A stretch of DNA of 64,000 nucleotides from Escherichia phage vB_Ec-M-J, in the sequence record OQ718158.1, one strand, 5' to 3'. The translations under genes and the position numbers were made by a program. This document shows, piece after piece, positions 31,204-36,477 of this stretch. The notes beneath the pieces were generated by a model. That model had not been told where the DNA came from. It did not search any database and was given only the letters and a program-made list of their open reading frames with translations. The first letter of the stretch is position 1. The number at the start of each line of letters is the position of its first letter.

Positions 31204-31460
31204 ATTATAAAGATTTCCAATTAACATTCAAGTGCATTCGTGACCTAGCAAATAAAAATAATAGTATATTTTTAGAAGATACATGTATTGAAATGATTAA
31301 TATTGTGCGTGAGAGGATTAAAGAAAAATTCAGTACTGTAATTATCAACAACGATCATGCAGAATTTTCAGATATAATCATTAAGCTCGATGGTAAAGTA
31401 GAGGTACAGTTCTACACTGATTTTGGATTTACGAGTGTTCCTCTGGAGATATTCCCTTGA
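31200..31460 (+). CDS. hypothetical small protein, family B
   Basis: 86-aa tandem paralog (MNYKDFQLTF). Confidence 0.55.
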   Translation: MNYKDFQLTFKCIRDLANKNNSIFLEDTCIEMINIVRERIKEKFSTVIINNDHAEFSDIIIKLDGKVEVQFYTDFGFTSVPLEIFP

Positions 31461-31768
31461 AATTAAATTTGAATGATGTTCAATTCACGTATAAAAATAT
31501 ATATGGTTTGTATGACATGTATCTTTTTAGTGGGAAGATTGGTGAACATGTCGAATCAAAAGAATCACCATTTATTAATAATTACTATGATTACTTAGAT
31601 TCTATTGCTGAATATATAAAAAAGAATTACAGTACTTACACTGATGGAGATGACATATTTGAATATTCAGGTGTAAAATCTTATCAAGGTATTATCCATG
31701 TAGAATTTCTTGAAAAAACTGATAGGGAATTTATGGAGATTAAAGTTATGAAGTTAACGGACCTATAA
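31457..31768 (+). CDS. hypothetical small protein, family B
   Basis: TTG start overlapping upstream TGA; tandem paralog (LNDVQFTYKNIY). Confidence 0.45.
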   Translation: MKLNLNDVQFTYKNIYGLYDMYLFSGKIGEHVESKESPFINNYYDYLDSIAEYIKKNYSTYTDGDDIFEYSGVKSYQGIIHVEFLEKTDREFMEIKVMKLTDL

Positions 31769-31778
31769 GAGTTGACAT

Positions 31779-32090
31779 ATGAATATTAATGATATACAAT
31801 TCACATACAAATTTTTGTATATCCAATACGCTACGGTTGATGCTGGAGAATATCTCTACGGTGAAATCTATCGTTCGGTATGGATAAAGTTTTTGGATGA
31901 ATTACATGAATATTACCATGATTTGTGTATAGTTCGTGATAATAAAATATACAAATTCCGCGATATTGTTAGTCATAGCGGTAAGCTACGATTGGAATTA
32001 AGTACCGATAGTGATGTTGATTGGATTGGTGTAAATTTACTGGAGTTGGAGAATGAAAAACAACTTAAAGGAAATACAAGTATTTTATAA
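31779..32090 (+). CDS. hypothetical small protein, family B
   Basis: tandem paralog (MNINDIQFTYKFLY). Confidence 0.55.
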   Translation: MNINDIQFTYKFLYIQYATVDAGEYLYGEIYRSVWIKFLDELHEYYHDLCIVRDNKIYKFRDIVSHSGKLRLELSTDSDVDWIGVNLLELENEKQLKGNTSIL

Positions 32091-32337
32091 ATTCTTATAC
32101 TTGTCATATGTAAAAGATGAGTACTATGAAAGTGTGTATTATTTTTTATGGCAACATTACCGTACTATAGTAAGAGATTTATATATAGGAAAATCTATCA
32201 TATCCAATGGTGAAAAATGTATATGTACTGATGTTGTTAGTTTTAATGGTTCTTTAACACTGTGTTTCAGATGCGATAATAATAGTGGGTCATTTTCATT
32301 AAACGTATATCAGTTAGAAGGAATAAATTTTGAATAA
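32053..32337 (+). CDS. hypothetical small protein, family B
   Basis: tandem paralog (LKEIQVFYKFLY). Confidence 0.5.
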   Translation: MKNNLKEIQVFYKFLYLSYVKDEYYESVYYFLWQHYRTIVRDLYIGKSIISNGEKCICTDVVSFNGSLTLCFRCDNNSGSFSLNVYQLEGINFE

Positions 32338-32530
32338 ATGTCCATATTGCAACAGTACTCAATTAGCTCGTTTCCGTTTAGATTCAGACTGGGCCACTGG
32401 TGCTGGTGATTTCTTTCCCATCAATGATGATTCGGAATACACTGAAGAACAGCACAAAGATTTTGATAAATCATGGCGACCTGACATTGAGTGCATTTAT
32501 TGCCTTAATTGTGAGCGTATCCATGACTAA
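32330..32530 (+). CDS. small zinc-ribbon protein
   Basis: CPYC ... CIYCLNC cysteine pairs; TTG start after AAGGA. Confidence 0.45.
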   Translation: MNKCPYCNSTQLARFRLDSDWATGAGDFFPINDDSEYTEEQHKDFDKSWRPDIECIYCLNCERIHD

Positions 32531-32786
32531 AGCTGAACTGATCGTGCAAACACTGCGTTTATTGAGGGATTTAGATATCCCACGCATGGATGTGAAACTT
32601 GAAGATATCTACATTGAATCTCTTAGTGAAGATTACACCGATACCGTAATGATGCTGAATGACGTGCTTTATCGTATAGATAGCATCAGTCGTCTTGGAA
32701 GTACTTTAAAAGTGAATATGGAAAGAGTTGATAAACTTTACGTACATATATATAGTCTACCCATTTCAATATTAAACTATAGATGA
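32523..32786 (+). CDS. hypothetical protein
   Basis: ATG 32523 overlapping upstream stop. Confidence 0.45.
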   Translation: MTKAELIVQTLRLLRDLDIPRMDVKLEDIYIESLSEDYTDTVMMLNDVLYRIDSISRLGSTLKVNMERVDKLYVHIYSLPISILNYR

Positions 32787-33073
32787 ATATTATATTGATA
32801 CAAAAAACATATGCGTTATTGATGAAAGAATATACTAATACTTATGATGAAAAGTGCAGTGCAAATCATAATATGTATAAATTCATCACTCAAGAGTACA
32901 GGGATTATATATATGCTGCGTTAGTTGGTAGATATTTCAGTACTAAAAAACGTAAAGAACTCAAAGTTGTAGATATTACTTTTTTCTACAACGGGCATAT
33001 AACAATTCATGGTGTGGAACATAATTCACAAATATATCGTAACTACTCATCCAATGAGGTAACATTTTTATGA
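32783..33073 (+). CDS. hypothetical small protein, family B
   Basis: 96-aa ORF (MNIILIQKTYALL). Confidence 0.5.
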   Translation: MNIILIQKTYALLMKEYTNTYDEKCSANHNMYKFITQEYRDYIYAALVGRYFSTKKRKELKVVDITFFYNGHITIHGVEHNSQIYRNYSSNEVTFL

Positions 33074-33243
33074 GAGCATTATTTTTTATCTGGAGTCTTT
33101 TTTCACTAGCAGTACTGACAGTAAGTGGGATTTGTTTCCTTTCGACAATGAATGTCTGGTACATTAATTTACTATTCCCATTCGTAGGTGTAGGTTTAGG
33201 ATTTACTTTACATAGTGTTTGTAAGGATTTTAATGGCAAATAA
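33070..33243 (+). CDS. hypothetical small membrane protein (57 aa)
   Basis: ORF not in the ORF track; two hydrophobic segments; ATGA overlap at both ends. Confidence 0.35.
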   Translation: MRALFFIWSLFSLAVLTVSGICFLSTMNVWYINLLFPFVGVGLGFTLHSVCKDFNGK

Positions 33244-33517
33244 ATCGAATGAAGTACTTGTTGCTGAAACAATGAAGATGGTTTATGCCATAACAACTAG
33301 TAATGATTTGTCTTACCCAATTAAGTCCAAGTTGAGGGATATAACTCTTCAGGTTATACAGCAGTACTACAAATCTAAACACAAAAGTATTATTAATGTT
33401 TATCGTGACTATGAAAGGATTCGCATTTTGTTCTGGAACAAGAATCGAGTTCGTTCGGAATGTGATATAGAAAACTTTAAATTTGAGAATCTTTATTGTT
33501 ACAAAGCGGGACAATAG
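33233..33517 (+). CDS. hypothetical small protein, family B-like
   Basis: ATG 33233 after AAGGA. Confidence 0.5.
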   Translation: MANKSNEVLVAETMKMVYAITTSNDLSYPIKSKLRDITLQVIQQYYKSKHKSIINVYRDYERIRILFWNKNRVRSECDIENFKFENLYCYKAGQ

Positions 33518-33535
33518 CTCAAGTAGTGATATAAT
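33508..33535 (+). promoter_or_regulatory. sigma70-like promoter (GGGACA-N16-TGATATAAT)
   Basis: -10 TATAAT 33530-33535 preceded by TGA; -35 GGGACA 33508-33513. Confidence 0.5.
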
Positions 33536-33575
33536 ATTGGGTATGGAACAATAACTAACACAAGGAGTGTGTAAA

Positions 33576-34499
33576 GTGCCAAGTAAAAAGCCAGATTCTG
33601 AAGTATTCAGACTGGTTGATGAAAAATTGAGTTCAATTGGTTCATCGGTAAAAATGGATAGAACAACATACACAACCATATCAAACAAATCAACTTTTTT
33701 CTGTGATGAATGTGGGTTTAGTAAAAATATCATAGTTAGGAATGTGTACAAAAATGGAATATTTTGTCATTGTCCCACATTTAAAACTTTATATAATAAA
33801 TTGGGTGAAATTAATTCAAAATTAAAATTAGATATTTCCACATTCACAACTACAAAAAACAAATCTAGATTTTATTGTGACGATTGTGCGTTTGAAAGAT
33901 ATATGACGGTGCATGATGTTAAGTCTAGAGGTGCATATTGTAAATGTCATTCATTATATTGTATGCCGTTAGATATCGACGAAGCATATAACACTATTAT
34001 GAATAAAATAAAAGATTACTCAAATACAATACATATGGATAAATCTACATACCGTGGTACACAATATAAGGTTAGATTTTATTGTACAGAGTGTAATTTT
34101 GACAAATATATTAATTATAGTAGAGTTAAATGTGGAACTCTTAACTGCAATTGTATCAGACCAATCCCAGAAGAAAGTAAATTATATATTTTAGGAATAT
34201 ATGAACAAAATATTTTAATAAAATATAAAGTTGGTATTTCTACAAAGATTGATAAATCAAGACTAATTAGTATTAGGTCAAAAACTAATTTTATAGTAGA
34301 GGAATTATATTATTTTACTGGAAATACCGAAGTTATTAAAAGTGTAGAATATAATATTTTAAATCTGCTTAAAAATAGTAGTAAATTGTCAAAGGATTAT
34401 TTTGGCGATGGGTATACTGAAACATTTGATTTACAAGATATAAATCTTGTTATTGATTATGTATGTAAATGTTTACTCGAAAATAAATTAAAAATATGA
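33576..34499 (+). CDS. T5orf172/GIY-YIG-like domain protein with three N-terminal zinc-ribbon repeats
   Basis: three ~45-aa repeats each with CxxC ... CxC; C-terminal LYILGIYEQNILIKYKVGIS ... FGDGYTETF; GTG 33576 eight nt after AAGGAG. Confidence 0.55.
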   Translation: MPSKKPDSEVFRLVDEKLSSIGSSVKMDRTTYTTISNKSTFFCDECGFSKNIIVRNVYKNGIFCHCPTFKTLYNKLGEINSKLKLDISTFTTTKNKSRFYCDDCAFERYMTVHDVKSRGAYCKCHSLYCMPLDIDEAYNTIMNKIKDYSNTIHMDKSTYRGTQYKVRFYCTECNFDKYINYSRVKCGTLNCNCIRPIPEESKLYILGIYEQNILIKYKVGISTKIDKSRLISIRSKTNFIVEELYYFTGNTEVIKSVEYNILNLLKNSSKLSKDYFGDGYTETFDLQDINLVIDYVCKCLLENKLKI

Positions 34500-34524
34500 A
34501 AATCATAAACACAAGGAATGTGAA

Positions 34525-35253
34525 ATGATAGATAATATAAAATTTGCAACAGAAATGGCGAATCAACTCAATATAGCAAATTTTCAAATGTTAACATCTG
34601 TTATGGCTGAACATGCTGCTGCATATTCATCTAGTGGTATACAATGTGGACAAGCTAACATGTTAGCTGATGTTTATAGTGAAGTTCAAAGCAAACAATA
34701 TAGCGTGAAGACATACAAGGATAAGTTCGTAAGTCTTTATATGAATGAAGATATTTCAGAAGACCGCAAATTCACCGATTTTATTATTGAACGCCGTATT
34801 AGTGGGGTTTCAGACCCAAATGCAGAAAGTGATATTGTATTCGATGAGGTATTAAAAGATATATACGAAAATGAATTGAAAAGTAAGAATCATTACAATG
34901 TACGTGAAACTAACACAGTGCTAGTTGGATATGATGAAGACGAACAATATTTCTATTTTCGTATAACAGAAGTTCCATTTGAATATAAAAAACCAACCAC
35001 TACATCTGTAAAAGAATTCACTGAGAAGAGTAAAAACTTCAAGAAACACGAAGGAAACCGTTGTAGTATTAATGGTTATGATGAAAATGGTGTTCATGTT
35101 TATGAATGGGTTTCACCTAATTGCCAGACATACACCCGTTGCTTGAAGAAACGTTATAATTTAGAAGACAATGAATCCTTCTACTTTAAAGTTAAGAAAC
35201 AAGGTTATACTCGCCCTGAAGATTCAGAATTGATGGGTATGGTATATTTCTAA
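34525..35253 (+). CDS. hypothetical protein
   Basis: 242-aa ORF; AAGGAA RBS. Confidence 0.6.
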   Translation: MIDNIKFATEMANQLNIANFQMLTSVMAEHAAAYSSSGIQCGQANMLADVYSEVQSKQYSVKTYKDKFVSLYMNEDISEDRKFTDFIIERRISGVSDPNAESDIVFDEVLKDIYENELKSKNHYNVRETNTVLVGYDEDEQYFYFRITEVPFEYKKPTTTSVKEFTEKSKNFKKHEGNRCSINGYDENGVHVYEWVSPNCQTYTRCLKKRYNLEDNESFYFKVKKQGYTRPEDSELMGMVYF

Positions 35254-35898: not shown

Positions 35899-36477
35899 AT
35901 GAATGTATTAGAATTATGTACTAAGCTGATTACTATGCGTAATGAGTGGTACGATTGGTTTTATAATGGTACTGATATGGATTTTTCAAAATATCCATTT
36001 ATGGAATCAGGATGTGATGCAAGATACCGCTGGTTGAGCAAAAGTGGTTCTGGTTTATTCATTCGAATTGATGATAGTGGTCAAGGAATTATAAAAGATT
36101 TAATTCGAGTTGAAGAACTCGTCCATGACAATTGGTGTGATAATGATCCATACCTTGGAAATATGATTTATGTAAGTAAAAATGATTGCATATTCGTTAT
36201 CCAGCGTCATGGTGATTCTATGTTTTATGTAGCAGACAACAGTACACCTGACGGTGCAGCAGCCAATGGACTTATGCCTAAGATTGATATATTGAAATTT
36301 GGATTACCTGAGCACTTCCAGATTAGTACTTTATACGATATTCCACCACTTGAGTTCTTTGAAGAATTTAAATTGTACTTCAATGATCTTCAAAAATTGA
36401 GTACTGATCGACGCATGGAAATAACTGTTAAGTACATGGACGGAACGAAATTAACCGATACGGGGATAGAATTTTGA
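35899..36477 (+). CDS. hypothetical protein with family-A-like motif
   Basis: GAGGA RBS; motif PEHFQISTLYD. Confidence 0.55.
   Translation: MNVLELCTKLITMRNEWYDWFYNGTDMDFSKYPFMESGCDARYRWLSKSGSGLFIRIDDSGQGIIKDLIRVEELVHDNWCDNDPYLGNMIYVSKNDCIFVIQRHGDSMFYVADNSTPDGAAANGLMPKIDILKFGLPEHFQISTLYDIPPLEFFEEFKLYFNDLQKLSTDRRMEITVKYMDGTKLTDTGIEF

Follow-up and report, generated by a model that had tools for sequence, protein, structure and literature searches.

The 64,000-nucleotide stretch of Escherichia phage vB_Ec-M-J analyzed here (record OQ718158.1; hereafter the window) comes from an Asteriusvirus (121Q-like) jumbo coliphage, and its open reading frame (ORF) at positions 33576-34499 is, with good probability, a free-standing homing endonuclease gene of the T5orf172 branch of the GIY-YIG superfamily. 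The encoded protein is a divergent member of the CapR-finger/T5orf172 homing endonucleases (Barth et al. 2023). An earlier note, made from the sequence alone, had proposed both halves of this architecture together with a homing-endonuclease-like function; profile searches, hhalign alignments and a presence/absence comparison across related phages support all three. The gene and the parts of its protein are located as follows.

33576-34499, plus strand: endonuclease gene, an ORF matching PHROG 681 (dN/dS 0.16, see below)
33639-33791, plus strand: zinc-finger repeat 1, residues 22-72, Cys 43/46 and 64/66
33813-33965, plus strand: zinc-finger repeat 2, residues 80-130, Cys 101/104 and 122/124
34020-34172, plus strand: zinc-finger repeat 3, residues 149-199, Cys 170/173 and 191/193
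34173-34484, plus strand: T5orf172/MUG113-type GIY-YIG nuclease domain, residues 200-303, ~105 amino acids

The ORF is intact, with a GTG start 8 nucleotides past AAGGAG and 307 codons followed by a stop codon. An earlier in-frame GTG, at 33567 in the ORF listing, is not a credible start because it lies right behind the Shine-Dalgarno sequence, and the GenBank annotation of phage EC.P1 gives the same 924-nucleotide coding sequence. An identical 307-amino-acid protein is recorded as 'endonuclease [Escherichia phage vB_Ec-M-J]' on a 378,573-nucleotide contig, and the protein matches PHROG 681, 'endonuclease', at E 2.2e-20. The gene has a G+C content of 26%, compared with 33.9% for the whole window, in which we found neither further copies of the finger or nuclease domain nor tRNA genes. 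The reading frame is unbroken in all seven gene copies seen. The ratio of non-synonymous to synonymous substitution rates (dN/dS) relative to a 75%-identical orthologue is 0.16 overall, 0.13 in the fingers and 0.21 in the nuclease domain; both halves of the protein are under purifying selection.

Three four-cysteine repeats, each of the form CxxC-17-CxC, occupy the N-terminal 200 residues. Pairwise local alignments of the three ~51-residue units score 80-120, as against 24.6 +/- 5 for shuffled sequences (z 11-19), and none of 2000 shuffles reaches the observed scores. The ORF with three N-terminal repeats and a C-terminal domain, as described in the earlier note, is confirmed, with some correction of detail. 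The proposed repeat length of ~45 residues describes the core, but the repeat starts are spaced 58 and 69 residues apart; the proposed signature T-T-x-x-N-K-S-x-F-x-C-D-x-C-x-F is exact in repeats 1 and 2, but repeat 3 retains only K..RFYC.EC.F. All 12 finger cysteines are retained, and C170, C191 and C193 are kept in at least 90% of 55 relatives.

Several comparisons identify the kind of finger. When the nine own repeats are aligned by hhalign with 14 CapR- or DUF4379-positive repeats, the match has 96% probability (E 4e-9). Among individual relatives, P0011 (50.7 bits for DUF4379) aligns to profile positions 20-173 with E 7e-9, and P0017 (CapR, 154 bits, four units) matches positions 75-290. 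A local finger hidden Markov model (HMM) recognizes repeat 1 with a domain E value of 5e-17, a match that is not independent, the HMM having been built partly from the same repeats. In the structural model, strands lie at residues 38-42 and 49-53 and helices at 54-60 and 66-78, and the second cysteine pair stands at a helix N-terminus. This arrangement points to a treble-clef finger more than to the two hairpins of a classical zinc ribbon, a reading based on the order of secondary-structure elements and not on coordinates. The repeats, called 'zinc ribbons' in the earlier note, are probably better described as CapR/DUF4379-type, treble-clef-like fingers. By analogy with CapR itself, they would be expected to bind zinc and to bind DNA sequence-specifically.

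The C-terminal strings on which the nuclease assignment was first based (LYILGIYEQNILIKYKVGIS, EELYYF and FGDGYTETF) are all present in the protein, and the T5orf172/GIY-YIG identity of the domain is borne out by Pfam-positive relatives. One of these, P0007, matches only the C-terminal domain (profile positions 194-303; E 1.5e-10 in a library of 1.84 billion) and itself passes the Pfam MUG113 cut-off (24.0 versus 22.3), and P0015, P0008 and P0014 score above the Pfam T5orf172 cut-off. When the C-terminal domain is compared by hhalign with the Pfam-positive relatives, 100 columns align at 99.4% probability and E 1.1e-21, and the DGYTE motif is among the aligned positions. An initial AlphaFold model from three sequences (predicted local distance difference test, pLDDT, 74.5) was replaced by a run with 55 sequences, in which the C-terminal domain reaches a pLDDT of 95-98. 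The modeled domain has the GIY-YIG alpha/beta fold, with its strand-strand-helix-strand-helix core, and GIY-YIG structures are its best matches. A Foldseek search against viral models returns 208 matches at E <= 0.001, of which the top ones are full-length and carry names such as CapR-homology, T5 Orf172, GIY-YIG and homing endonuclease.

Seven positions (Y204, K218, G220, R229, E258, G279 and E282) are invariant over 29 diverse relatives. R229 and E282 are probably the catalytic arginine and the metal-binding glutamate. They would then correspond to R27 and E75 of I-TevI, and E282 to E180 of Odn, an equivalence taken from motif position (PMC8263062) and not from residue-level superposition. 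The C-terminal domain is predicted to have endonuclease activity.

Close relatives are few. A word-indexed homologue search of 5.8 billion proteins returns only three close clusters, at 100%, 75% and 55% identity, and a search of 1.84 billion representatives with a profile built from these three yields 53 relatives. Among the 55 aligned proteins, Pfam recognizes CapR (PF21817) in 23, DUF4379 (PF14311) in 23 and DUF723 in 14, and on the nuclease side MUG113 in 18 and T5orf172 in 17. The finger-family matches coincide with the part homologous to the repeats, and the nuclease-family matches with the part homologous to the C-terminal domain. In some finger-bearing relatives a DUF559/MTES_1575 nuclease replaces T5orf172.

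The position of the gene provides a second, separate body of evidence. It lies exactly at the start codon of the neighboring gene, a homologue of 121Q gp432, and leaves the adjoining genes intact. The elements of the locus are listed below.

33508-33535, plus strand: promoter-like site, GGGACA-16-TATAAT with TG before the -10 element (extended -10), from a consensus scan
33557-33578, plus strand: copy 1 of the ribosome-binding site (RBS) with start codon, AACACAAGGAGTGTGTAAAGTG; native gp432 site and left junction of the insertion
34508-34527, plus strand: RBS copy 2 with ATG, AACACAAGGAATGTGAAATG; duplicate at the 3' end of the insert, serving gp432
34525-35253, plus strand: gp432 homologue, 242 amino acids, PHROG 16105
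34500-35100, plus strand: one-sided co-conversion tract, ~600 bp, from identity to phage CMSTMSU
34525-34578, plus strand: recoded gp432 5' end, MIDNIKFATEMANQLNI in place of MLDRIRFATEMANELNM; gene-linked allele

In 121Q, CMSTMSU and other gene-less genomes, AACACAAGGAGTGTGTAAA-GTG/ATG continues straight into the gp432 homologue, which begins GTG/ATG CTT GAC CGT. The window departs from this sequence right after GTGC: here translation of the endonuclease begins from the native RBS and GTG, and gp432 begins from a second site, AACACAAGGAATGTGAA-ATG, past the stop codon. The resemblance between the two RBS contexts, remarked on in the earlier note, is a real local duplication. AACACAAGGAGTGTG (33557-33571) and AACACAAGGAATGTG (34508-34522) are the only matches to AACACAAGGARTGTG with at most one mismatch in the 64-kb window, where 0.04 would be expected by chance, and two occurrences in 64 kb rule out that the likeness merely reflects a general RBS consensus of the phage. 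The two sites are near-identical because the insertion duplicated the native gp432 RBS, and the duplicate restores gp432 translation. A diverged second RBS copy also precedes gp432 in the distant orthologous locus L005. The promoter element TGATATAAT is found 5' of gp432 in gene-less genomes as well. The promoter-like site upstream of the shared RBS would drive the endonuclease gene and then gp432; sites of this kind are not over-represented in the region.

The same gap is occupied differently in Escherichia phage ph0011, where a 494-amino-acid ORF (L003 2069-3553) lies at the equivalent of window positions ~33518-33556, 5' of the gp432 promoter and RBS. This ORF matches the tail-fiber PHROGs 13714 (E 6e-184) and 7032 (E 4e-141). 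Its tail-fiber matches and its position upstream of the promoter and RBS rule it out as a longer relative of the endonuclease, and it places a tail-fiber-like gene among early-type small genes. Since this insertion is unrelated, the gap between gp431 and gp432 is a repeated insertion point.

Downstream of the insertion the window changes its affinity. Upstream, over 2 kb and up to position 33575, it is 98-100% identical to CMSTMSU; over 34500-35100 identity falls to 78-86%, and beyond that it returns to 95-99%. Within gp432, nucleotides 1-600 show 79-82% identity between the three carriers (window, EC.P1, TH47) and each of the gene-less phages, whereas nucleotides 601-729 of the window are 98% identical to the CMSTMSU clade. 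CMSTMSU and 121Q, by comparison, are 89% identical both inside and outside the tract. The comparison indicates that this tract is native to the CMSTMSU backbone and foreign to that of the window. The drop in identity, together with the constancy between CMSTMSU and 121Q, indicates that the gene and ~600 bp of flank came from a diverged donor into a CMSTMSU-like backbone. The gp432 protein is otherwise well conserved: it remains 83-88% identical even in the distant L005, where neighboring genes are 25-62% identical.

The 5' end of gp432 carries a further mark. All gene-bearing genomes, including L006 and L005, have the gp432 start ATGATAGATAATATAAAATTTGC in common, whereas nine of the ten gene-less genomes inspected carry CTTGACCGTATCCGTTTCGC (with one substitution in JP4) and the remaining one, phage A4, is intermediate. 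Eight of the 22 fixed differences in gp432 fall within the first 54 of its 729 nucleotides (7% of the gene), and the linked differences cluster in nucleotides 9-48. The recoded start is a candidate remnant of the recognition or cleavage site, presumably now immune.

Phage A4, which lacks the gene, has the gp432 start VIDRIRFASELANQLNI (L013 ~875-935, equivalent to window 34525-34585), with I2, Q14 and I17 in common with the gene-linked allele; it may represent an ancestral or naturally resistant target allele. IMG/VR scans for both gp432 alleles re-found only phage 121Q, and a metagenome scan with gp432 yielded two more near-identical gene-bearing loci.

Occurrence of the gene is sporadic. It is present in two of 35 related GenBank phages, EC.P1 and TH47, and a tblastn search of 50,697 phage records finds it only in these two. 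It also occurs in two near-identical metagenome contigs and in two divergent orthologous loci, always in the same slot, and is absent from the 10 other genomes inspected. The gene-bearing genomes compared here are the window, EC.P1, TH47, L005, L006, L016 and L017; the L006 endonuclease is 75% and the L005 endonuclease 55% identical to that of the window. Presence and absence across related phages, the comparison to which the earlier note had pointed, bear the classic homing signature of sporadic occurrence, a fixed site, an imported flank and a linked allele.

These observations fit a mechanism in which the three tandem CapR/DUF4379-type fingers, arranged as 'beads on a string', would serve as the sequence-reading part and the C-terminal T5orf172 domain as the cutter. 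During co-infection with a gene-less Asteriusvirus, the enzyme would cut the other phage's genome at a point inside or close to the opening ~50 bp of the gp432 homologue, and at any rate no farther than ~600 bp into it. When the break is repaired with the carrier genome as template, the endonuclease gene would be passed on along with its spare RBS and the ~600 bp of gp432 next to it. The carrier itself would escape cutting for two reasons: its site is interrupted by the insertion at the start codon, and the first 48 nucleotides of gp432 are recoded. The analysis demonstrates the architecture, fold and homology of the protein, its conserved residues and purifying selection, and for the gene the sporadic distribution, exact insertion point, RBS duplication, imported tract and linked allele; zinc and DNA binding, cleavage, the position of the cut and still-active homing are inferred.

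A number of results weigh against this interpretation. In direct Pfam scans, even at E <= 10, neither the whole protein nor its isolated C-terminal 113 residues match T5orf172 or GIY-YIG models (PF10544, PF13455), and the repeats match none of PF21817 (CapR), PF14311 (DUF4379) and PF05265 (DUF723). The Pfam scans also covered the N-terminal half on its own, and an NCBIfam scan likewise returns no T5orf172, GIY-YIG, CapR or DUF4379 match. Among solved structures, Foldseek against the PDB gives nothing significant, with SLX1 at E 0.66, and sequence searches of the PDB, made both with the protein alone and with a profile of 29 domain sequences, detect no solved structure. The imported tract demonstrates recombination, not that the endonuclease caused it. 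The excess of differences in the first 54 nucleotides of gp432 is not unique either: a second hypervariable patch at window 34795-34848 (nucleotides 271-324) has 15-25 mismatches per 54 nucleotides relative to every other lineage, though it varies among the gene-bearing genomes too and is therefore not linked to the gene. The association of gene and allele rests on a small sample of three independent gene-bearing lineages, and since MIDNIKFA was among the metagenome search patterns, that scan was biased to the linked allele and was left unused as a test of association. On the first of these points, the earlier note had made its nuclease assignment depend on a significant profile hit; the direct hmmscan literally yields none, but the more sensitive profile tests described above reverse that outcome.

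The best-surviving alternative, which we judge unlikely, is that the protein is a domesticated relative of homing endonucleases that no longer spreads itself. It would then either regulate by binding specific DNA sequences, as PLE CapR does, or serve as a nuclease against competitors or satellites, as ICP1 Odn does, and its patchiness would reflect ordinary accessory-gene flux. Both roles have precedents, in that CapR-type fingers repress transcription without a nuclease (PMC8096241) and a T5orf172 nuclease has been co-opted against a satellite (PMC8263062). Moreover, the gene lies between a conserved promoter-like element and a conserved gene, where binding could be regulatory, and purifying selection fits any function useful to the phage. 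The protein nevertheless keeps, unlike CapR, a full nuclease domain with all family-invariant residues, and its gene is accompanied by ~600 bp of foreign flanking sequence that begins, on the left, at the insertion point. A recoded neighbor allele strictly linked across same-locus orthologues of 55-98% identity is not predicted for a regulator or weapon acting in trans, and no target of the gene-less type, at up to three mismatches, occurs elsewhere in the 64-kb window.

Somewhat less likely still is a decaying or inactive homing endonuclease remnant, now moved only passively, as mosaic jumbo-phage genomes recombine through general homology. Degeneration after fixation is common among homing endonuclease genes, the region is mosaic in any case (with patches at 32900-33200, relative to EC.P1, and at 35900-36400, missing in CMSTMSU), and ph0011 has its unrelated insertion in the same gap. 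Decay is difficult to reconcile, however, with a frame intact in seven of seven copies, a dN/dS of 0.13-0.21 in both domains, and a protein that has lost none of its 12 finger cysteines and none of the invariant Y/K/G/R/E/E positions.

That the C-terminal domain has another fold, as in a CoiA-like zinc ribbon with a PD-(D/E)xK nuclease, its motif likeness to GIY-YIG being coincidental, is highly improbable and was rejected: the sole direct Pfam matches are weak ones to DUF7838 and the CoiA_N zinc ribbon (E 0.0003-0.003; 20.8 bits, below the cut-off of 26.3), and some finger-bearing relatives do carry DUF559/MTES_1575 nucleases, but the CoiA_N match is limited to finger residues 28-47, the C-terminal domain aligns with T5orf172/MUG113-positive proteins, and its model best matches GIY-YIG structures. 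Other noise in the direct Pfam and NCBIfam scans comprises sub-threshold matches to Peptidase_M99_m and a TraR-type zinc finger.

The homing endonuclease reading can be taken one step further, to a proposal that we regard as doubtful. Each of the three fingers would read one sub-site of the ~40-bp stretch at the gp432 start (nucleotides 9-48), so that natural variation would yield a recognition code for CapR/DUF4379 fingers, and in parallel the gene would act as a marker-exclusion weapon between co-infecting jumbo coliphages. A natural series does exist at this one site, comprising orthologues of 98%, 75% and 55% identity and target alleles that are gene-less and presumably sensitive, linked and presumably immune, or intermediate (A4). 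If the proposal were true, the code could lead to a small, modular, monomeric nuclease scaffold, perhaps a reprogrammable one.

Other features of the region deserve mention in their own right. Four small ORFs of 94-103 amino acids lie on the plus strand at window 31457-33073 (31457-31768, 31779-32090, 32053-32337 and 32783-33073). They have the N-terminal motif N-(L/I)-N-D/E-IQFTYK..LY..Y in common at 17-25% overall identity, and may form a tandem paralogous family. Near them, at 32330-32530 on the plus strand, a 66-amino-acid ORF with CPYC...CLNC looks like a stand-alone zinc-ribbon protein; its position is kept, as a 201-nucleotide coding sequence is annotated there in 121Q, CMSTMSU and ph0011. 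EC.P1, whose backbone is otherwise 99-100% identical to the window, is only 75-80% identical at 32900-33200, and CMSTMSU lacks ~500 bp corresponding to most of the ORF at 35899-36477.

These results propose a function and a mechanism for an Asteriusvirus gene annotated as hypothetical or just as 'endonuclease', for which our search of the literature on Asteriusvirus genome reports found no paper describing it. They also show that existing Pfam models overlook one clade of T5orf172/CapR-finger homing endonucleases. Knowledge of the T5orf172 homing-element class is left unchanged: this is a clear but ordinary example, well suited to teaching, that will not surprise the specialist. Its value lies in an unusually clean natural record of one probable homing event, in which the exact junctions, the duplication of the RBS, the ~600-bp co-conversion tract and the recoded allele linked to the gene can all be read. 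From this record a candidate target site can be defined, and it offers a starting point for learning how CapR-type finger arrays read DNA.

Among known systems, the T4-type enzymes I-TevI and SegA-G combine a GIY-YIG catalytic fold with a distinct DNA-binding module containing a small zinc finger. The free-standing homing genes of T-even phages lie between conserved genes, and in mixed infections they spread and co-convert the markers that flank them, which is established knowledge cited in PMC8096241 and PMC8263062. I-TevI and the Seg proteins have their nuclease domain at the N-terminus, whereas here it is C-terminal, and a triple finger array takes the place of the zinc finger, minor-groove helix and helix-turn-helix of the I-TevI type. 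The SLX1/URI-type GIY-YIG nucleases (PDB 7wme, 6seh and 7cq2) are more remote, with 13-15% sequence identity to the nuclease domain described here; SLX1 works as a structure-specific nuclease together with its partner SLX4, has a RING/PHD-type finger and is not a mobile element.

The fingers have their closest functional precedent in PLE CapR, from a Vibrio cholerae phage satellite, whose cysteines are needed for sequence-specific DNA binding, as Cys-to-Ser mutants and gel shifts demonstrate (Netter et al. 2021, PMC8096241). The two proteins have the same kind of four-cysteine finger, and PF21817 is named after CapR, but the finger spacing is 17 residues here as compared with the 24-26 reported for CapR (PMC8096241). 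CapR is a domesticated repressor that has one DNA-binding region and lacks a nuclease domain, whereas the phage protein combines three fingers with an intact nuclease domain. For that domain the corresponding precedent is Odn (Gp88) of phage ICP1, a T5orf172 DNA endonuclease whose E180A mutant is inactive (Barth et al. 2021, PMC8263062). As in Odn, the T5orf172 catalytic domain has a conserved arginine and glutamate, and the first helix after the conserved arginine (RLISIRSK), as read from the sequence, contains neither His nor Tyr. Odn differs in reading DNA through a RepA_N domain derived from its satellite target, and it acts as a defense weapon, not as a homing element.

The nearest counterparts are the T5orf172 homing endonuclease genes described by Barth, Dunham and Seed (2023, PMC10448857), a set that includes gp53, gp121, gp130, gp165 and gp174 of vibriophage ICP1 and relatives in T5-like, Aeromonas and Vibrio phages. 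In that work, fingers of the CapR, DUF723 or DUF4379 kind occur in 87% of 229 such genes, often as a repeated 'beads on a string' array, and the genes are located at boundaries of genetic exchange. Like them, the gene described here encodes N-terminal CxxC...CxC fingers, of which those proteins have one to several, followed by a C-terminal T5orf172 domain, and like them it is free-standing beside conserved genes, at an exchange boundary between related phages. It differs from them in belonging to a divergent clade that the Pfam T5orf172, MUG113, CapR, DUF4379 and DUF723 models miss, in residing in an Asteriusvirus jumbo coliphage, and in having been inserted at a start codon with duplication of the RBS.

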